Source of the DNA: Christensenellales bacterium
GTDB lineage: Bacteria > Bacillota > Clostridia > Christensenellales > DTU072
Length of the DNA stretch: 64,000 nucleotides
NCBI GenBank assembly: GCA_050309775.1
Contig: JBNRMV010000001.1
Span: 95,014-159,013 of the forward strand
Direction of reading: 5' to 3'
Shown: positions 36,816 to 45,349 of the stretch, one piece after another
How the letters are laid out: every line of letters begins with the position of its first letter
Numbering within the stretch: position 1 is the first letter of the stretch
The notes under the pieces: generated by a model
What the model saw: the letters and a program-made list of their open reading frames with translations, nothing else
Databases searched by the model: none
What the model was told of the DNA's origin: nothing
Translations under genes and position numbers: made by a program

Positions 36816-36846
36816 ATTGACATGCCAGGCTTATAGTTATATAATA
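36816..36846 (+). promoter_or_regulatory. Candidate promoter of the seven-gene glycoside locus
   Basis: TTGACA followed by a TATAAT-like element 15-17 nt downstream. Exact spacing is uncertain because of a 1-nt reading ambiguity (see rejected notes). Confidence 0.45.
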
Positions 36847-36879: not shown

Positions 36880-37350
36880 GTGATAGCAATCGGTTCTGAT
36901 AAGTCTGGGTTTGCACTCAAGGAAAGCATAAAAAGTTTTTTGAAGCAAGAGGGTTTTGCATTTGACGACCTCGGAACGCAGAGCATGGACGCAGGTGTTC
37001 CTTATTTTGAGGTAGCAAGCAAAATTGCTCCGCTGGTAGCTGACGGAACTTATGAGAAAGCTATACTTGTTTGTGGAACGGGCATGGGAATGAGCGTTGT
37101 TGCCAACAAGCACAAGGGAGTATATGCCGCCGCCGTTGAAAGCGTGTACAGCGCAAAAATGGCAAGGGCAATAAACAATGCGCAAATACTTTGTATGGGC
37201 GGCTGGATTATTGCAACCGAAATGGGCATAGAGATGACGAAGGTTTTTCTCAATACGGAATTTTTGCAGGGGTTGGAAGACTGGCGGCAACAGTTTTTGA
37301 CTAATGCGGCGCAAAAATTAAAAGATATTGAAGAGGACATTTATGGATAA
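36880..37350 (+). CDS. RpiB/LacA/LacB-family sugar(-phosphate) isomerase
   Basis: IAIGSDKSGFALKE...LVCGTGMGMSVVANK core. I place the start at GTG 36880, after GTAGAGG, rather than at the upstream TTG at 36817. Confidence 0.8.
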   Translation: MIAIGSDKSGFALKESIKSFLKQEGFAFDDLGTQSMDAGVPYFEVASKIAPLVADGTYEKAILVCGTGMGMSVVANKHKGVYAAAVESVYSAKMARAINNAQILCMGGWIIATEMGIEMTKVFLNTEFLQGLEDWRQQFLTNAAQKLKDIEEDIYG

Positions 37351-38458
37351 TTTTACTTATGCGCAACCCGTAAAGATTTATTTCGGCGCAGGCAAGCTCA
37401 ATGAGTTGGGCGAAATTGCCGAAAAAAACGGCTACAAGCGAGGCGGTTTGATAGCCGACTCAATTTTTATTAAAAACGGATTGGCGCAGTCCCTGAAAGA
37501 AAAAACACCATGCATTATAGGTGTTTTTTCTGAGTTTTCGCCAAACCCTATGCTGAATGAAGTGCTTGCCGCAGCGGCAAAGCTCAAAGAATGGCAAGTG
37601 GATTTTGTCGTAGCTTTGGGCGGAGGCAGCGCGCTGGATTTGGCGAAGTTTGCCGCGTCCATGGTCTATGCGCAGCATGACATAAGAGATTATTTTTTTG
37701 GAAAGAAAACATTTTCATCAGAACATTTGCCGCTTTTTGCCGTGCCTTCAACGGCAGGCACAGGCTCGGAAGTTACCACAGTATCCGTATGTACCGACGA
37801 CGACACCGGCATAAAGGCGCCGCTATTACATAAGAATTTTTTACCGGAAATAGCTATTGTAGATTCTCAACTGACGCTGAGCGTGCCGCCTTTTGTGACA
37901 GCGCTGACGGGCATGGATGCCTTGTCGCATGCGCTGGAGGCTTTTTGGAGTATCAATCATCAGCCTATTTGCGACTTGCTGGCAACTGCGGCTTGCAGGT
38001 TGATATTTGCCAATCTGGAAACAGCGTATGCAGACGGCAGAAACCCTACCGCAAGACACAACATGTCCTTGGCGGCTCTTTACGCCGGACTGGCTTTTTC
38101 CCAAACAAAGACGGCGGCTTGCCATGCTTGTTCCTATCCGCTTTCTTCAGATTACAACCTAGCGCACGGGGAAGCTTGCGCCTTTACTCTTGACAGCATA
38201 ACCCGTTTGAATGCCGCTGCCGAAGGCGGTCGGGTGGAAAGGCTGGCAAAAGAAATAGGGATTGAGAACGCCGACGCAATGGCGGACAAGATATACGCAA
38301 TGAAAAAAGCTATGGGCTTGAGATGTACGCTTGCCGAATGCGGCATAGAGGACATTTCCGCTCTTAGTGAAAAGTGCGTTGCTCATCCGCTGATGAACAA
38401 CAATCCCGTAAAAATAGACAAAAGTACCATGATAAAAATCTTTGAAAATTTGAGGTGA
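37343..38458 (+). CDS. Iron-containing (group III) alcohol dehydrogenase
   Basis: GGGSALDLAK, PSTAGTGSEVT, DALSHALEA and HACSYPL...HGEA metal ligands. ATG 37343 overlaps the upstream stop (ATGGATAA). Confidence 0.85.
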   Translation: MDNFTYAQPVKIYFGAGKLNELGEIAEKNGYKRGGLIADSIFIKNGLAQSLKEKTPCIIGVFSEFSPNPMLNEVLAAAAKLKEWQVDFVVALGGGSALDLAKFAASMVYAQHDIRDYFFGKKTFSSEHLPLFAVPSTAGTGSEVTTVSVCTDDDTGIKAPLLHKNFLPEIAIVDSQLTLSVPPFVTALTGMDALSHALEAFWSINHQPICDLLATAACRLIFANLETAYADGRNPTARHNMSLAALYAGLAFSQTKTAACHACSYPLSSDYNLAHGEACAFTLDSITRLNAAAEGGRVERLAKEIGIENADAMADKIYAMKKAMGLRCTLAECGIEDISALSEKCVAHPLMNNNPVKIDKSTMIKIFENLR

Positions 38459-38459
38459 C

Positions 38460-39539
38460 ATGACTAATCAAGGGTCAAACAGCAAATCGCTGAGATGCAA
38501 CAACAGGAGGGTTATCCTTTGGAAATTGTTCAACAACGGTCCGATGTCCAGAGTTGAGCTTGCCAAGGAGTGCCGTCTTACGGGTGCGGCTATCACAATC
38601 ATAGTAAAAGAACTGCTTGAAAGCGGGAAAATTATTGAAAACGGGCAGAGGTTGCAACGCAACCACCAGGGCAGGAAAGAGGTATTGCTTGATTTGAACT
38701 ATAACGAATACCTTGCCTGCAACATAAATATTGAACGGGACAACATTCATTTTTCTCTTTGCAGTCTGAAAGGCATTGTCTTTAAATCCATAAAACCCAC
38801 AAAAGAGATGATGGGCATAGAGTATTTACGCATAAACATTGAGCGTATAACAAGAGGCTATGAGCACAGGCTTGTAGGCATAGGCATAGGAGTGACGGGC
38901 GCCGTAGACGAACAGAGCGGCGAATTGGTTAATTCATACGGCTTGTTCCCTAACGGCTTGAACATTAAAGAAGAGCTGGGCAGATATTTTCAAGTGCCGA
39001 TATATGTTGCCAACAATGTACGAGCGCAAGCAATGGCAATAATAAGTATGGACAACAGGAATTTCTTATACATAAAACACGGGCCGGGAGTAGGTTGCGC
39101 CATTGTCATAAATGGCAAGGTGCTGAACGGGCATACCAACAAAGCCGGAGAAATGTCCCAAGTGCGCATTTCCTGCGCTTCGGACAAGCTGGAAGACTAT
39201 TTGAAGGAAGATGAGTTGCTGGCAAAAACGCACTTCAGCACCACAAAGGAACTGTATGCGGCATACAGGGTAAACAAACAAGCAACGGAAGTGCTGGACG
39301 AGTGCATCTTAACTATGGCTTATTGTGTAATAAACATGAACAAGCTGATAGACCCCGAAAAAATTATTCTGGGCGGCGGATTTTTTTATAGCCAGTTGAT
39401 ATACGAAGAATTGTATAAAAAACTTTGTGAAATAGACTCAGAAGCCGCCGAAAAGGTTGAACTTTTGTCAGAGGAAGTCAACATAAAAAGCATTGCCAGC
39501 GCCAGACTGGTTTTTAACAAAGTATTCTTTGAAGCGTAA
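38460..39539 (+). CDS. ROK-family transcriptional regulator (N-terminal wHTH)
   Basis: The N-terminal NNRRVILWKLFNNGPMSRVELAKECRLTGAAITIIVKEL is followed by a ROK sugar-binding-like domain. The kinase DxGxT and CxCGxxGC motifs are degenerate. Confidence 0.8.
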   Translation: MTNQGSNSKSLRCNNRRVILWKLFNNGPMSRVELAKECRLTGAAITIIVKELLESGKIIENGQRLQRNHQGRKEVLLDLNYNEYLACNINIERDNIHFSLCSLKGIVFKSIKPTKEMMGIEYLRINIERITRGYEHRLVGIGIGVTGAVDEQSGELVNSYGLFPNGLNIKEELGRYFQVPIYVANNVRAQAMAIISMDNRNFLYIKHGPGVGCAIVINGKVLNGHTNKAGEMSQVRISCASDKLEDYLKEDELLAKTHFSTTKELYAAYRVNKQATEVLDECILTMAYCVINMNKLIDPEKIILGGGFFYSQLIYEELYKKLCEIDSEAAEKVELLSEEVNIKSIASARLVFNKVFFEA

Positions 39540-39549
39540 GGAGGACTAC

Positions 39550-41037
39550 ATGCGCCAAGACAAAAAGATTTATCAGGACCCAAAACTGTTTACCGAAAAG
39601 GTAGCGCTGAAAGAGAAAATGATATTTGCTTCAGCCGATTTGTACGGCGGCGGCGCCCCCTCTCTTGTCAATACGCTGTATTTTGCTTTTTTGGTAGCTA
39701 TGGGCGTAGGTACGGTTTGGGCGGGAGTAATTGTCGCAGTCGCAAAGATATGGGACGCTGTTACCGACCCGTTCATGGGCGTCATAAGCGACAACACCCG
39801 TTCAAAGTGGGGCAGGCGCAGGCCATACATATTATTTGGCGGAATGCTGATTATTGCCAGCTTTGCGCTGTTGTTTTTGCCTATGCAATCGGTCAGCTCA
39901 AAAGCGCTGAAAGTTACCGTATATATGGCGGCATATCTCTTTTATAATACGCTGTCAACAGTCATAAATGTCAGCTATTCGAGTTTTTCGACAGAGCTTG
40001 CCAACAATCCCAAAGAGACGACGCAGGTCAACACGCTGCGCCTTATATTCTCCATGTGTTCGGGCGGCATAGCCGCAATAGGCGGCACTTTACTGCTTGA
40101 TAAACTGCTTACGGGAGCCATTTCCATAAACACATTGTACTTTATAGTGGTATTCGGATTCGGCGCGCTGTACACTGTGCCTTGCGTACTTACAGGTCTT
40201 TTCACCAAAGAAAGAGTAAGACTGCCTGAAACCAAGTCAACTTTCACATTCAAGACTTTCATTACGCCGCTGAAAGTTAAGGCATTCATTTATTTGCTTT
40301 GCGGCTATCTCTTTGCTTATGTGTGCATGGATTTGCTCAGCACAAATATAGTTTATTTTGCAAACTACGCTTTGGATGTGGAGGTAGGCGGCACCGTTAT
40401 ACTAGGCACAGTCATGGTCATTACTTTCTTCACATTGCCGCTGTATTACCTTATGATGCAAAAAGGCGTTGCCAAGCCATTTATTTTTAGGGTGGGTATA
40501 CCCGTCTATATCATAGGAATTGTCTTGCTGACCATGGTACCGCTTAACAACCTGCCGCTGGTGTTATTCTTTTGCTTTCTCATAGGCATAGGCATGGCTG
40601 GCTCACAACTTATGCCATGGATAATATTCCCCGACATCATCGACATAGCCGAATTAAAACTCGGCAACAGACCTACGGGCAGTTTCAGCGGAGTTATGAC
40701 TTTTACAAAAAAATCCACATCGGCGATAGCCATACTCTTATCCGGCATTGTGCTGAAACTTGTCGGGTTCAATGAGCCTAAGGCAGACCCGACAACGGGA
40801 AAAATAAATTATGAGGACTTTGTACAGACCGATATCGCCGTATGGGGCATAAAGTTGCTCATTATGGTTTCGGTAGTAATATTCATGGGACTGGCGTTCT
40901 TTGCCATGCGCAGGCTCAAACTAAACAACGCAATAAGCGAAAAGGTAAGATATCTCATAGAAAAGAGAAATCGCGGAGAGGAATACGACGAACAGGACAA
41001 AAAAGATTTTGCGCAAATAGAGAAAGACTTTTTTTAA
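39550..41037 (+). CDS. GPH-family glycoside:cation symporter (MelB/YihO-like MFS)
   Basis: GPH signature DAVTDPFMGVISDNTRSKWGRRRPY and 12 hydrophobic segments. ATG 39550 follows an AGGAGG RBS. Confidence 0.85.
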   Translation: MRQDKKIYQDPKLFTEKVALKEKMIFASADLYGGGAPSLVNTLYFAFLVAMGVGTVWAGVIVAVAKIWDAVTDPFMGVISDNTRSKWGRRRPYILFGGMLIIASFALLFLPMQSVSSKALKVTVYMAAYLFYNTLSTVINVSYSSFSTELANNPKETTQVNTLRLIFSMCSGGIAAIGGTLLLDKLLTGAISINTLYFIVVFGFGALYTVPCVLTGLFTKERVRLPETKSTFTFKTFITPLKVKAFIYLLCGYLFAYVCMDLLSTNIVYFANYALDVEVGGTVILGTVMVITFFTLPLYYLMMQKGVAKPFIFRVGIPVYIIGIVLLTMVPLNNLPLVLFFCFLIGIGMAGSQLMPWIIFPDIIDIAELKLGNRPTGSFSGVMTFTKKSTSAIAILLSGIVLKLVGFNEPKADPTTGKINYEDFVQTDIAVWGIKLLIMVSVVIFMGLAFFAMRRLKLNNAISEKVRYLIEKRNRGEEYDEQDKKDFAQIEKDFF

Positions 41038-41048
41038 TGAGGTCATAA

Positions 41049-42362
41049 ATGAAAAAACATATAAGACTGGGCGTAGTGTGCCTGGCAAGAAAGACCTTTG
41101 ATTTTGAGGCGGCGGCGCAGCTGTATGATATTATTTTGCAAAATCTGCAAACGCTTGAAAATGTCACCGTTTGCGCTGTAAAACAGCTTGTAATTGAGGT
41201 CTGCGACGCCGAGAAAGCCGCATCGGAACTGTATGACAGCAAAGTTGACGGCATAGCCGTAATCAGCGGAACTTTCCACCTTGGGCATCTTGCGTTGGAA
41301 ATAAAAAAGAGAGTAGACAAGCCGCTTTTGCTATGGGGTTTGCCAGAATTACCCTATGACGGCGGCAAAATAAGGCTGAATTCAGTTTGCGGCGTAAACC
41401 TCAACGCGTCCAATCTCGTAAAGGGCGGCATAAACGACTTTACCTATACCATAAGCTCTGAAATTGACGAAAACTGGTTGGACGCTGTACGCATGACGGC
41501 GGCATTAAAAAATGCCAAGGTGGGTATTCTAGGCTATCGCGCGCACGGGTTTTTTAATCTTGACATTGACGAACCGGCGCTTTACAAAAAGTTCGGCATA
41601 CTTATAGACCATTTTGAGTTGGAGCAGGTCTGGAACTACAAATTTGACGAAAAAGACAGGACTACCTATGCCGAAATTATGAAACAGCGCTTTGATGCCT
41701 CCGAGATAACGGACAAACAAGCTGCGTTGGTGGCGGATTTGGCAGCCAAACTCAAAGCCTTTGTCCAAGACAATCGTCTGAACGCGCTGGCAATCAGATG
41801 CTGGCCGGAATTTGCCGCAGGCTTTGGAGTGGCGCCTTGCGCGGCTATGAGTTTGCTGCAAAGTCAGGATATTGTACTGGCATGCGAGGGGGATATTGAC
41901 TGCGCGTTGACTATGCTTTGTCATCAGGCGGCAGGCGCAGAAACGCCTTTTATGGCAGACCTGTCGCAAGTAAACTTAGCAGAGGATTTTGCGCTTATGT
42001 GGCATTGCGGAGTGGCGGCGGTCAACCTTTGCGACAAACAATGCGCTGCGACGCTGGACACTTATTTTGCCGGGGGCAAAGGAGTGACAGCCGGCTTTGT
42101 CATGAGAAGCGGCGCAATAAACATGGCGCGGTTGGACAGCATAAACGGACGGTATAGACTGTTCCAAGAAAAAGGTCAAGCCGTGCCTATGAAAAAACTG
42201 TTGACGGGAACATATGCCAAGGTCAGTTTTGACAAGCCCATGAAAGAGGTGCTGGACAAGGTGGTCTACAACGGCGTTGCGCATCATGTTTCTATGGTCT
42301 ATGGCGACTATACCCGAGCCATGCAGATATTTGCCAGACTGAACGGAATAGAGATGTTGTAG
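41049..42362 (+). CDS. L-fucose/L-arabinose isomerase-superfamily protein (aldose-ketose isomerase), specificity unknown
   Basis: 437 aa. The N-terminus is a Rossmann-like sugar-isomerase domain. The C-terminal CEGD, WHCG and HHVSMVYGD match the Glu/His metal-site pattern of this superfamily as I recall it. Confidence 0.6.
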   Translation: MKKHIRLGVVCLARKTFDFEAAAQLYDIILQNLQTLENVTVCAVKQLVIEVCDAEKAASELYDSKVDGIAVISGTFHLGHLALEIKKRVDKPLLLWGLPELPYDGGKIRLNSVCGVNLNASNLVKGGINDFTYTISSEIDENWLDAVRMTAALKNAKVGILGYRAHGFFNLDIDEPALYKKFGILIDHFELEQVWNYKFDEKDRTTYAEIMKQRFDASEITDKQAALVADLAAKLKAFVQDNRLNALAIRCWPEFAAGFGVAPCAAMSLLQSQDIVLACEGDIDCALTMLCHQAAGAETPFMADLSQVNLAEDFALMWHCGVAAVNLCDKQCAATLDTYFAGGKGVTAGFVMRSGAINMARLDSINGRYRLFQEKGQAVPMKKLLTGTYAKVSFDKPMKEVLDKVVYNGVAHHVSMVYGDYTRAMQIFARLNGIEML

Positions 42363-42370
42363 AAAAAGCG

Positions 42371-44368
42371 TTGAAAAGGAAAGAAATGATGGAACTCATT
42401 GACATAAACGGACAGGCGATATTGAAATTCAAAGGCAGGAAGGTGTTTTCGCACAGCGCCGATGCCCCCTTTGTTACCGTTGCCAAAGGCAGAGTAAAAT
42501 TCAAGAGCAGCCACGGCAGTTTTTCCGTTAAAAAGCAAAAAAGACAACTCATTGCGCTGCCTGAATACAAGGTCTTGACAGACTGTCTTGAAATCTTTGG
42601 GGAGGGCGCAAGCGTAAGGCTTGAATTCTCCGAAAAGAACGGCATGCTTTATGCCAAAATCAGCGCCGGCGGAGCCATTGACAGCATATCATTTTGCTTT
42701 GACAGCAACAAGGACGAAATGTTCTTTGGCGGCGGCGAGCAGTACAGAAAACTCAATCTGAAAGGCGAAATAGTTACAAACTTTGTGTCGGAACACATAA
42801 AGGTCATGCCTATTGCCGAAAAGACGATTTTTCGCAAATTCAAAAAATACCGTGTGAGAAATCACAGCGAAATAACCACTTACAGCCCTATGTCGACCTT
42901 TGTTTCAAGTGAAAAATATGCTTTGCGTTTTGACACAGACGGTTATGGAGAACAGGACTTTACACAAAATGATAAATCGGTATTTACCTATTGGGGCATA
43001 CCCGAGGGGTTTTGTTATGTCGCAGAGGACAGTTTCAAGGATATTTCAAAAAAGCTGGCTATGGACATTGCAGCAAACCCGTTTTTGCCGGACTGGGCTT
43101 ATGAGGGTATGATTCTGGGTGTGCAAGGCGGCATTGATACGGTAAAAAAGAAAGCGTATTACATGCTGGGTCAGGGCGCAAAGGTCGTTGGCGTTTGGTG
43201 TCAGGACTGGTCTGGCAAGAAAGTCACAGCCGCCGGTAGTCAGGTTTATTGGAACTGGCAAGCTGACGAAACCATGTATGCCGCTTTGAAAGAAGAAATT
43301 GCCGAATTGAAAAGCAAGGGAGTGCGCTTTCTTGCTTACATAAATCCATATTTGATAGTAAACGGCAAATTGTACAACGAATGCAAAGAAAAGGGTTATC
43401 TTATTAAGAACGCTGACGGCGGTATATACCACATAACAAGCACGACTTTTGCCGCCGGTATGATGGACCTAACAAATCCGGGAATGGTAAAGTATCTGAA
43501 AGATACCATAATAAAAAAGAACATGCTGGAACTAGGGATTGACGGATATATGGCTGACTTCGGCGAATATTTGCCGACAGACAGCGTACTGTATGACGGC
43601 GACGCAACCAAGCTGCACAACAAATGGCCGGTGCTTTGGGCAAAAATAAATCGTCAGGCTATAGCGGAGAGCGGCAGAGAAAAGGAAATTTTCTTTTTTA
43701 CCCGTTCGGGATACAACGGCGCGCAAAAATATACCACTATTATGTGGAACGGCGACCAGCACACTGACTTTACCCAAGACTACGGAATGCCTTGCATAAT
43801 TCCTGCATCAATAAACCTCGGTATGTCGGGGTTGACGGCAGTTCACAGCGATATCGGCGGTTTTATCTCTTTTCGCAATCTGAAAAGGGATGTCGAACTA
43901 TATGTCCGCTGGTTGGAACTTTGCACATTCAGTCCGCTTTTGAGAGGGCATGAAAGCATAAGACCGCAGGCAAATGTGCAGTATGACCACCCGGAAGTTG
44001 TGCCGTATGCCGTGACATTCTCCACCCTTCATAAAAAACTTGCTCCGTACATAAAGCATTGCATGGCGGAGGCAAAAGGGGGGCTACCCGTAATGCGCGC
44101 GCCTTTTTATGAATACAATGACATGTCGCTTTATAAAGAAGACTATGTTTACATGTTGGGCAGCGAGCTTTTTGTGGCGCCCGTTATCACTCCAAATACA
44201 TATGAAAGACAGGTGTTTGTGCCAGAAGGAGAATGGATACATCTCCTTAGCGGCAAACTGTACAAAGGCGGGCAACAGACCATATCCGCACCGTTGGGCA
44301 CGCCGGCGGTGTTATACAAGAAAGACAGCAGTTTTGCGGCGCTGTTTGAAAGCTGCAAATCAGACTAA
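42371..44368 (+). CDS. GH31 alpha-glycosidase of the YihQ-like size class
   Basis: Nucleophile motif YMADFGEYLP, acid/base motif WNGDQ, and HSDIGGF. The ORF-track start is TTG 42371; ATG 42386 behind AAGGA is an alternative. Confidence 0.85.
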   Translation: MKRKEMMELIDINGQAILKFKGRKVFSHSADAPFVTVAKGRVKFKSSHGSFSVKKQKRQLIALPEYKVLTDCLEIFGEGASVRLEFSEKNGMLYAKISAGGAIDSISFCFDSNKDEMFFGGGEQYRKLNLKGEIVTNFVSEHIKVMPIAEKTIFRKFKKYRVRNHSEITTYSPMSTFVSSEKYALRFDTDGYGEQDFTQNDKSVFTYWGIPEGFCYVAEDSFKDISKKLAMDIAANPFLPDWAYEGMILGVQGGIDTVKKKAYYMLGQGAKVVGVWCQDWSGKKVTAAGSQVYWNWQADETMYAALKEEIAELKSKGVRFLAYINPYLIVNGKLYNECKEKGYLIKNADGGIYHITSTTFAAGMMDLTNPGMVKYLKDTIIKKNMLELGIDGYMADFGEYLPTDSVLYDGDATKLHNKWPVLWAKINRQAIAESGREKEIFFFTRSGYNGAQKYTTIMWNGDQHTDFTQDYGMPCIIPASINLGMSGLTAVHSDIGGFISFRNLKRDVELYVRWLELCTFSPLLRGHESIRPQANVQYDHPEVVPYAVTFSTLHKKLAPYIKHCMAEAKGGLPVMRAPFYEYNDMSLYKEDYVYMLGSELFVAPVITPNTYERQVFVPEGEWIHLLSGKLYKGGQQTISAPLGTPAVLYKKDSSFAALFESCKSD

Positions 44369-44378
44369 CGGAGGACAT

Positions 44379-45278
44379 ATGAAAGAACTTAGACTGCCGT
44401 CATGGGACGGCAAAGAGATTTTTTGCTCATTGTGGGATGAAGTCGAAAACCCAAAAGGCGTTGTGCAGATTTCGCACGGCATGAGCGAGTATGCCGGCAG
44501 ATATGACCGATTTGCCAGATTTCTGAATGACAACGGTTATATTGTCTTTGCAGATGACCACAGAGCGCACGGCAGGACAGAAACCGACCAAAACCGCGGA
44601 CATGACAAGGGTTTTATTTTTAGCAACACGCTGAAAGATTTGGTATTTATACATAATTATCTCAAAGAAAAATATAACTTGCCTCAGGTGCTGGTGGGGC
44701 ACAGTTACGGCAGTTTTTTGGCGCAGGCGTTTTTCCTTGAAGATACTGATGCAAAAGGCGTGGCACTTCTTGGCTCCGCATATATTCCCAATGCGTTGGT
44801 AGGCGTCGGTGTTGCCATAATGTCGCCCATACAGTTGCTTTTCGGCAGTTGCCGCCCGAAGATTTTTATAAAAGCCACAGATGCGCTTTTCCGCTACAAA
44901 GGCGACAACGGTCCCAGCCAATGGGTGACTAGCGACAAACAAAGCCGTAAGGAATTCTTAGAGGACAAATATTGCGGTATCAACATGAGCATAAATTTTG
45001 TGTTTTCTATGATGAGGGGAATTTATATTACCAATAAGAATATAAAAAAACTCAACCCCGACAGAAAGCTGGGCATATTTTCAGGCGACGGCGATCCGAT
45101 AGGCGGCAAAGGAACCAAAGTTAAGGCGCTTATGAACCGCTATAAAAAGTACGGCGTCAAGGACATTACTTACCGCTTGTATGAAGGAGTGCGCCACGAA
45201 GTGCTGAACGAAACCATTTTTGAACAAACACAGCAAGATGTTTTGGCATTCATTGAACATTGCATAAACGATAAATAA
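44379..45278 (+). CDS. Alpha/beta-hydrolase, lysophospholipase/monoacylglycerol-lipase-like
   Basis: ISHGMSEYAGRY, the nucleophile elbow GHSYGS, and a C-terminal RHE region. ATG 44379 follows a GGAGG RBS, and the longer track ORF overlaps the GH31 gene. Confidence 0.8.
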   Translation: MKELRLPSWDGKEIFCSLWDEVENPKGVVQISHGMSEYAGRYDRFARFLNDNGYIVFADDHRAHGRTETDQNRGHDKGFIFSNTLKDLVFIHNYLKEKYNLPQVLVGHSYGSFLAQAFFLEDTDAKGVALLGSAYIPNALVGVGVAIMSPIQLLFGSCRPKIFIKATDALFRYKGDNGPSQWVTSDKQSRKEFLEDKYCGINMSINFVFSMMRGIYITNKNIKKLNPDRKLGIFSGDGDPIGGKGTKVKALMNRYKKYGVKDITYRLYEGVRHEVLNETIFEQTQQDVLAFIEHCINDK

Positions 45279-45320
45279 AAACAAGCTGCAACAAAACATA
45301 AAATTCAAGCAACCAAAACA

Positions 45321-45349
45321 AAAGAACGGTAGAAAACCCGTTCTTTTTT
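45321..45349 (+). terminator. Intrinsic terminator ending the glycoside locus
   Basis: AAAGAACGG-uagaaaac-CCGUUCUUU stem followed by a U-run. Confidence 0.75.

Follow-up and report, generated by a model that had tools for sequence, protein, structure and literature searches.

A YihQ-like GH31 glycosidase with glutamine and phenylalanine at the sulfonate-binding arginine and tyrosine positions belongs to a clade found in sulfoquinovose-type gene clusters of Clostridia

Does a glycosidase built like the sulfoquinovosidase YihQ still act on sulfoquinovosides once two of the residues that recognize the sulfonate have been replaced? The question is raised by a GH31 gene (42371–44368, + strand) in a 64,000-nucleotide stretch of a Christensenellales genome (GenBank assembly GCA_050309775.1, contig JBNRMV010000001.1, positions 95,014 to 159,013 of the forward strand), here called the window. 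An Arg-Trp-Tyr triad is the published signature of sulfoquinovosidases and the ground for trust in bioinformatic pathway assignments (PMC8795539, PMC12780224). An earlier note on this DNA had claimed that the encoded protein keeps the fold and register of YihQ with an altered triad, and that it probably accepts an uncharged or differently substituted C6 instead of sulfoquinovose. The first half of that claim is borne out by our analysis. For the second half we favor a different answer, at a probability of roughly 0.55, namely that the protein is a sulfoquinovosidase whose sulfonate pocket is charge-neutral and formed by Gln, Thr and Trp.

As called, the reading frame encodes 665 amino acids from a TTG at 42371. 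This codon is probably not the true start, because an ATG at 42386 is preceded at 5 nt by an AAGGA box and a database entry of identical sequence (P0001) is 660 amino acids long; the real residue numbers would then probably be 5 lower (Gln286, Trp289, Asp391, Asp457 and Phe493). Numbering from the TTG is used throughout. No signal peptide is evident. A scripted translation recovers every motif and codon that the earlier note had described: SQVYW at residues 290–294, in the loop after barrel strand 2 (Gln291 to Trp294, 43241–43252, with Gln291 encoded by CAG at 43241–43243 and Trp294 at 43250–43252); the catalytic nucleophile Asp396 in MADFGE (43556–43558); Asn460-Gly-Asp462 in NGDQ (43748–43756), where Asp462 (43754–43756) is the acid/base; and Phe498, a TTT codon at 43862–43864, in HSDIGGF.

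A phmmer search of the PDB matched E. coli YihQ (5AED) at E = 4e-139, with an alignment that is gap-free around the key sites and sets Q252, Q278, Q291, W294, D396, D462 and F498 of the query opposite Q262, Q288, R301, W304, D405, D472 and Y508 of YihQ. Counting along the chain gives the offsets of 10, 10, 9, 10 and 10 residues on which the earlier note had relied, and the residue roles that it had given agree with the published Q/E-RWY motif of sulfoquinovosidases (Q288, R301, W304 and Y508; PMC12780224) and with the sulfonate triad of SmoI, Arg283-Trp286-H2O(Tyr491) (PMC8795539). Relative to YihQ, Arg301 has become Gln291 and Tyr508 has become Phe498, while Trp304 is kept as Trp294. The Gln/Glu-288 and Gln/Lys-262 positions of the QQRWY/KERWY signature are filled by Gln278 and Gln252.

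Membership of the YihQ family is clear at the level of both domain and fold. Pfam detects the GH31 barrel (PF01055, 1.9e-44) and the C-terminal domain (PF21365, 3.7e-14), and the NCBIfam model of YihQ, PRK10426, gives 644.9 bits, above its cut-off of 553; a paralogue of the canonical Arg type reaches 879. An AlphaFold2 model computed from an alignment of 30 clade members has a mean predicted local distance difference test score (pLDDT) of 90.4 and a predicted template modelling score of 0.92. In Foldseek this model superimposes with template modelling (TM) scores of 0.90–0.93 on BmSQase (8R56), EcYihQ (5OHT/5AEE/5AED), ErSftG (6PNR) and AtSmoI (5OHS/7OFX), the next-nearest fold being Agd31B at 0.73. 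The YihQ-like fold and register proposed earlier thus agree with a PRK10426 score above its cut-off and a TM of 0.92 on four solved sulfoquinovosidases. In the 30-member alignment (47–80% identity to the query) Asp396, Asp462, Gln291 and Trp294 are invariant; Q252, Q278, W294, D396, D462, R445, E141 and H527 are conserved. The best explanation of the sequence is that the product is a cytoplasmic retaining α-glycosidase of YihQ (GH31 subfamily 13-like) fold, using Asp396 as nucleophile and Asp462 as acid/base.

The altered triad is shared by a whole clade. Among the best 120 matches in a collection of 5.8 billion proteins (47–100% identity), Gln occupies the Arg301 position in 119, and the triad positions read Q-W-F in 103, Q-W-Y in 17 and R-W-F in 1. 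The substitution is neither chance nor sequencing error, since nearly all of these homologues have Gln, and the description of the two positions as Gln and Phe stands on the alignment with YihQ as well as on the Q-W-F homologues; position 498 is Phe or Tyr across the clade. The genome records of the clade come nearly all from uncultured Christensenellales, Oscillospiraceae and other Clostridia of the rumen and gut, and the window's own GH31 sequence recurs in metagenomes from poultry litter, digesters, sludge and compost. In a FastTree phylogeny of 139 sequences (50%-identity cluster representatives plus 17 closer homologues), the window's core clade has a support of 0.98, the enlarged Gln clade 0.94 and the canonical Arg-Trp-Tyr clade 0.81; taken together, the support values for the Gln clade run from 0.94 to 1.0. 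The Gln clade is sister to the canonical Arg clade (support of the joining node, 0.975), so that the query lies outside the clade of tested sulfoquinovosidases and within its sister.

The substitution of Arg301 is accompanied by further clade-specific changes. Comparing 128 Gln-type with 19 Arg-type sequences, we found group-conserved contrasts at Gln291 (Arg in the Arg type), at 356–359 ((K/T)-S-T-T against (D/E)-F-G-E), at His142-Ile143 (Gln-Gly), and at Thr444 (Met), Asn460 (Ala), Tyr471 (Asp) and Cys475 (Ser); position 142 is Gln, Pro or Asn in Arg-type enzymes. In the query, the loop Thr356-Ser357-Thr358-Thr359 (43436–43447) replaces Glu366-Phe367-Gly368-Glu369 of YihQ, from which the protein also differs by Ala470 to Asn, Asp481 to Tyr and Gln153 to His, in addition to the two triad residues. 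The earlier note had allowed that an Arg and a Tyr might enter the sulfonate pocket from elsewhere in the chain, but at the sequence level no compensating Arg or Tyr has been gained clade-wide. As stand-ins for the lost residues, the sole basic gains, Lys356 (84% of the clade, Thr in the query) and His142/His165, were considered and rejected; they include no Arg, and His142 adjoins the aglycone-binding Glu141.

One of these changes is tied to the loss of Arg301. Of all positions, 358 (Gly368 in YihQ) shares the highest mutual information with 291 (0.70 bit), and its three neighbors come next. Across the wider YihQ-like family, Arg is paired with Gly in 41 sequences and Gln with Thr or Ser in 71, against 1 with Arg and Thr/Ser and 4 with Gln and Gly. 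Fitch parsimony over 277 branches places 17 changes between Arg and Gln and 12 between Gly and Thr/Ser, 7 of which share a branch where about 0.7 would be expected. Because the two positions switch together across the family, these data suggest that Arg over Gly and Gln beside Thr are two alternative builds of one pocket, which have been interconverted repeatedly. The loop 356–359 is presumably a hairpin inserted after barrel strand 3, a region which we take to face C5 and C6 of the sugar in other GH31 members, and we infer that Thr358 lines the same C6 pocket as Gln291.

Residues on the aglycone side have been retained. Glu141 (Glu141-His142, 42791–42796) corresponds to Glu152 of YihQ and, by numbering offset, to Glu135 of SmoI, and His142 is specific to the Gln clade. 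Arg445 (43703–43705), conserved in the clade, corresponds by the offset of +10 to Arg455 of YihQ and is equated with Arg438 of SmoI through the –17 offset between SmoI and YihQ numbering rather than through a direct alignment. In SmoI, Glu135 hydrogen-bonds the glyceryl aglycone and Arg438 binds the aglycone C2-OH (PMC8795539). Since their likely equivalents contact the glyceryl aglycone in SmoI, the conserved Glu141 and Arg445 would fit a glycosyl-glycerol substrate.

The operon in which the gene lies points toward sulfoquinovose. A single promoter (TTGACA-17-TATAAT, 36817–36845, + strand, 12 of 12 matches) and a single terminator (hairpin and T-run, 45320–45347, + strand) bracket seven genes of the same strand, including the GH31 gene. 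The first encodes an RpiB/LacAB-family, SqwI-like isomerase (36880–37350, +; PF02502 at 1e-43; NCBIfam rpiB_lacA_lacB subfamily). The promoter overlaps the called TTG start of this reading frame, which is in fact the –35 hexamer; the gene most likely starts at a GTG (36880) that follows an AGAGG box, and yields a 156-residue protein. It is followed by an SqwF-like Fe-dependent alcohol dehydrogenase (37328–38458, +; PF00465, PF25137), whose NCBIfam matches include, below the cut-off, the sulfoacetaldehyde reductase SarD (184 bits); by a ROK-family protein with a weak N-terminal helix-turn-helix in Pfam and NCBIfam (38460–39539, +), a probable repressor; and by a GPH (MFS_2) glycoside:cation symporter (39493–41037, +; PF13347 at 2e-64; TIGR00792), the true start of which is probably downstream of the called TTG. 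Directly before the GH31 gene stands a FucI-family isomerase (41049–42362, +; PF02952), a distant homologue of SftI/SqvD whose sole NCBIfam match, over its full length, is the sulfoquinovose isomerase SftI (NF048012). In the sulfo-transketolase pathway, SqvD/SftI belongs to PF02952, SqwI to PF02502 and SqwF, the sulfoacetaldehyde reductase, to PF00465, the Fe-alcohol dehydrogenase family (PMC9594981). The last gene, 10 nt after the GH31 stop and behind a GGAGG box, encodes an α/β hydrolase of the monoacylglycerol-lipase type (Hydrolase_4; 44379–45278, +). A lipase-type hydrolase adjoins the GH31 gene in only 1 of the 80 related loci; in the host it stands where relatives have an EamA gene.

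The same association recurs throughout the clade. We examined 81 loci, the window and 80 related ones, in which genes were called with codon-usage scoring and clustered, and the clusters checked with Pfam. The neighbors of the Gln-type GH31 gene were a GPH symporter in 52 loci, an SftI-like isomerase in 43, the transketolase N subunit in 31 and C subunit in 21, an RpiB-like isomerase in 30, an Fe-alcohol dehydrogenase in 24, an EamA exporter in 22, and DUF4867 (SftX) and ROK proteins in 15 each. The usual gene order is GH31-GPH, isomerase, then transketolase N and C subunits, RpiB, Fe-alcohol dehydrogenase, EamA, ROK and DUF4867. Related loci carry the full sulfo-transketolase set, whereas the window operon has the isomerase, RpiB-like and Fe-alcohol dehydrogenase genes only. 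Two distant Gln-Trp-Tyr sisters are likewise placed, one in a sulfo-transaldolase cluster of a Clostridium sp. whose only YihQ-like enzyme is of the Gln type (TauE, ROK, transaldolase, β-hydroxyacid dehydrogenase, isomerase, GPH, GH31 and DUF4867), the other in a sulfo-transketolase cluster with an ATP-binding cassette (ABC) transporter; other distant Gln- and Arg-type members lie on contigs that are too short or in uninformative surroundings. Of 25 genomes tested that hold such clusters, all 25 have the Gln-type gene and no other YihQ-like one at E <= 1e-100. A cluster-borne Gfo/Idh/MocA gene, used as an unvalidated stand-in for the GH188 enzyme SqgA, had no close homologue in 22 of 26 genomes, and none was found in the host, which is a weak negative.

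The host genome (1.98 Mb, 96.8% complete) encodes two split transketolase pairs (N and C subunits) away from the window, at C7:65136-66906 and C4:15532-17408. The C7 pair, which is beside dnaN and other origin-region genes, is the closer of the two to the cluster-borne SqwGH (55% and 49% identity). A search of the host genome found no second YihQ-like gene; in an E. coli control genome the NCBIfam model of YihQ stayed under its own cut-off although K-12 encodes YihQ, a shortfall that the control assembly itself or the six-frame scoring could explain. In relatives of the same genus or family (loci L085, L095 and L084), an EamA gene directly adjoins the GH31 gene, and L084 also has a DUF4867 gene.

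Two further kinds of locus bear on whether the Gln/Thr and Arg/Gly builds serve the same sugar. One GH31 protein, P0077, branches from within the Gln clade (supports 0.91–0.98) and has reverted to Arg, with Gly at 358 and Ala at 460, and its operon is unchanged (RpiB, ROK, isomerase, GH31 and GPH, the isomerase 55% identical to that of the window). Since the revertant keeps the same operon, it argues that both pocket builds serve the same pathway. In four other loci (L015, L019, L033 and L061), two paralogues of 36–39% identity share one cluster, the Arg-type one accompanied by ABC permeases and the Gln-type one by a GPH symporter. Each of these clusters has a single set of downstream enzymes, and one shared downstream pathway suggests one sugar. 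The substrates of the paralogues perhaps differ in the aglycone, as hinted by the clade-specific changes near Glu141, Arg445 and Asp462.

The rumen offers a related case. Ca. Limivicinus, Caproiciproducens and Sphaerochaetaceae transcribe the sulfo-transketolase pathway in the rumen while sulfoquinovose is converted to isethionate, most variants among rumen yihQ amplicons fall on one long branch, and some Ca. Limivicinus have two yihQ copies (PMC13219744). The amplicon spans the Tyr508 position but not that of Arg301. One locus labelled Ca. Limivicinus (L055) pairs a Gln-type gene with GPH; next to them lie ABC permease genes and the tail of another YihQ-like copy, which has Tyr at the Tyr508 position and whose Arg301 position lies beyond the contig end. 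Bovine gut metatranscriptome contigs of 95–100% identity cover both genes of a Ca. Limivicinus locus with two paralogues at similar low depth, a result that shows presence in RNA libraries only, contig depth being a poor measure of expression and the sample metadata being coded.

Taken from sequence and gene context, the picture we favor is that of a sulfoquinovoside as substrate. The GPH symporter, encoded two genes upstream, would import sulfoquinovosyl glycerol or deacylated sulfolipid, and the GH31 enzyme would cleave it to release sulfoquinovose. The sugar would then pass, in an order that is likewise presumed, to the SftI-like isomerase of the operon, to a split transketolase whose genes lie away from the operon, to the RpiB-like isomerase and to the Fe-alcohol dehydrogenase. 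In the active site the sulfonate would be held by uncharged hydrogen-bond donors (the Gln amide, the Thr hydroxyl and the Trp indole) with no guanidinium, a proposal made because Arg is replaced by Gln291, Gly by Thr358 in the T-S-T-T loop and Tyr by Phe498, with Trp294 kept.

By precedent, an uncharged sulfonate pocket would be credible. In SmoF (7OFY), which binds sulfoquinovosyl glycerol at 0.29 μM and rejects glucose and glucuronate, the sulfonate is contacted by a Thr hydroxyl, by two backbone amides and by a water that His and Gln keep in place; no charged side chain touches it directly (PMC8795539). SmoF differs in being a solute-binding protein of unrelated fold and no enzyme, and is a precedent for the chemistry only. 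AmSqgH of Alteromonas macleodii (WP_014951134.1), a GH31 enzyme of a distinct clade that lacks the RWY motif, was assayed and cleaves p-nitrophenyl sulfoquinovoside and sulfoquinovosyl glycerol; its predicted sulfonate ligands are R302, T377, K412 and F513 (PMC12780224). Like the query it lacks RWY and lies in a sulfoquinovose cluster, and by numbering alone Thr377 and Phe513 fall near the equivalents of Thr358 and Phe498. Unlike the query, it shares no more than about 28% identity with YihQ, is without the connecting β-sheets of that enzyme and still has an Arg and a Lys among its predicted ligands.

Several observations weigh against this interpretation. All four solved and tested YihQ-type enzymes carry Arg-Trp-Tyr and none comes from the Gln clade. 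The contact of Thr358 with C6 is inferred from covariation and GH31 topology, and the active-site loops are the weakest parts of the structural model, with pLDDT of 59–78 at 141–160, 281–290, 351–360 and 461–470. His142, Thr444, Asn460 and Tyr471 are near the acid/base and the aglycone site, indicating remodelling beyond the C6 pocket. The isomerase of the operon scores 219 bits, far under the SftI equivalog cut-off of 700, transketolase is absent from the operon, and a genome search found neither an EamA (SqwE-like) exporter nor a DUF4867 gene in the host. Among loci with long flanks, roughly one in four has the GH31-GPH pair with no sulfo genes within 10 kb. Finally, five loci combine in one cluster a canonical Arg-type gene that has an ABC transporter of its own and the Gln-type gene with GPH, and two glycosidases with two transporters suggest two substrates.

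A reading in line with the earlier note, that the Gln/Thr/Phe pocket has no sulfonate recognition and that the substrate is an α-glucoside with an uncharged or different C6 (6-deoxyglucose, glucose or other), the nearby transketolase-type genes processing that sugar or both sugars, is in our view unlikely but a serious contender. It would account for the loss of the only charged sulfonate ligand together with the Tyr hydroxyl, and for clusters in which Arg- and Gln-type paralogues each have a transporter of their own, ABC for the former and GPH for the latter. It would also suit the wider family, where Gln/Thr is the commoner build and includes long proteins (700–1100 residues) with no nearby sulfo genes, a FucI-family isomerase that is by ancestry a 6-deoxy-sugar isomerase, and a host without an isethionate exporter of the EamA type, which a neutral product such as ethanol would not need. 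We nevertheless do not favor it, because the operon carries SftI-, SqwI- and SqwF-like genes, the clade lies in sulfo-transketolase and sulfo-transaldolase clusters, and the Arg/Gly revertant P0077 keeps its operon. The EamA/TauE exporters, DUF4867/SftX and the sulfolactaldehyde-reductase-type gene to which the clade is tied would have no role for a neutral sugar, and a plain glucoside needs no such pathway; nor does a neutral C6 sit well with a Gln-type gene that is the sole YihQ-like gene in all 25 sulfo-transketolase genomes, or with the one downstream pathway of the dual-paralogue clusters. To our knowledge, rumen and digester habitats hold no abundant natural source of α-quinovosides. Rather improbable, in turn, is that the Gln/Thr branch recognizes another 6-substituted α-glucoside, one undescribed as a bacterial nutrient, and that transketolase- and transaldolase-type clusters with only this enzyme degrade that sugar.

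It is also conceivable that the GH31 gene and its symporter form a general α-glucosidase module of the melibiose/maltose type, set beside sulfo genes merely through the island-like organization of carbohydrate genes. The NCBI naming rule does give the name 'alpha-glucosidase', MelB is the best named NCBIfam relative of the symporter, and several of the loci have the GH31-GPH pair with no sulfo genes within 10 kb. We regard this as highly improbable, given that the association recurs in genomes labelled Christensenellales, Oscillospiraceae and Lachnospiraceae, in varied gene orders and with both transketolase and transaldolase, that in the window the gene shares one promoter-to-terminator unit with pathway genes, and that its nearest relatives in sequence and fold are all sulfoquinovosidases. 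That two of three signature residues are gone could further mark the protein as a remnant of a sulfoquinovosidase that has lost catalysis or serves in binding alone, a notion that is hardly credible for a large and old clade in which 25 of 26 genomes keep the frame open and the nucleophile, acid/base and other sugar-binding residues are invariant in the 30 aligned members.

Among known systems, the YihQ-type sulfoquinovosidases (YihQ, SmoI, SftG and BmSQase) are the closest. At about 35% identity they have in common with the query the domain layout and fold (TM 0.92), the nucleophile and acid/base, Gln262/Gln288, Trp304 and the aglycone-binding Glu and Arg, and a sulfoglycolysis gene neighborhood of the same kind. 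E. coli YicI and other GH31 α-xylosidases and α-glucosidases have the same barrel and catalytic Asp pair, but are far more distant (E = 1e-40, TM about 0.7, 20% identity). SqgA, a GH188 NAD-dependent sulfoquinovosidase (PMC10755693), has the same proposed gateway role in sulfoquinovose clusters without a canonical YihQ, and differs in its unrelated fold and oxidoreductive mechanism. The kcat/KM of YihQ is about 1e5 per M per s (PMC11968277), and that of SftG is of similar size. A full-text literature search for mutagenesis data on R301 or Y508 returned nothing relevant, and in the literature searched we found no description of an Arg-free YihQ branch; reviews to July 2026 name only YihQ-type GH31_13, the SqgH clade and the GH188 enzyme SqgA.

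Many sulfo-transketolase genomes of Clostridia from rumen, gut and digesters have no YihQ-like enzyme other than that of a clade without the Arg, and often without the Tyr. Should the Gln/Thr enzymes prove to be active sulfoquinovosidases, a broader signature will be needed, and the family would hold two natural ways of binding a sulfonate, one charged and one uncharged, between which evolution has gone back and forth. Otherwise, a considerable part of the inferred diversity of sulfoquinovosidases is something else; and should the branch use another sugar, some of the sulfoquinovose-degrading capacity now counted in the microbiomes of rumen, gut and digesters would be wrongly assigned.

A few individual records are of separate interest. 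In one sulfo-transketolase cluster with a Gln-Trp-Tyr GH31 gene (L082:4672-9856), the genes for a Gfo/Idh/MocA oxidoreductase and for an AP_endonuc_2 protein, a xylose-isomerase-like TIM barrel, lie between the RpiB-like gene and the ABC transporter; they may provide another glycosidase, one that depends on NAD, or a further step of sugar modification. A locus titled 'Escherichia coli isolate ... cleanbin' (CAVGWF010000016.1, L034) holds a Clostridia-type Gln-Trp-Phe GH31 gene, 48% identical to that of the window, with a GPH gene, and looks like a mislabelled or contaminated bin. A protein of the representative library (P0161), with the giant length of 4269 residues, matches the query in six separate stretches and seems to contain several YihQ-like GH31 modules. 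Lastly, the 742-residue P0150 (locus L098), a distant member of the Arg/Gly type reading H-E-R-W-Y, adjoins genes for a glycerol kinase, a Hydrolase_4 lipase and a three-gene set resembling anaerobic glycerol-3-phosphate dehydrogenase, with no sulfosugar genes, and may cleave a glycosyl-glycerol lipid head group mainly for its glycerol.

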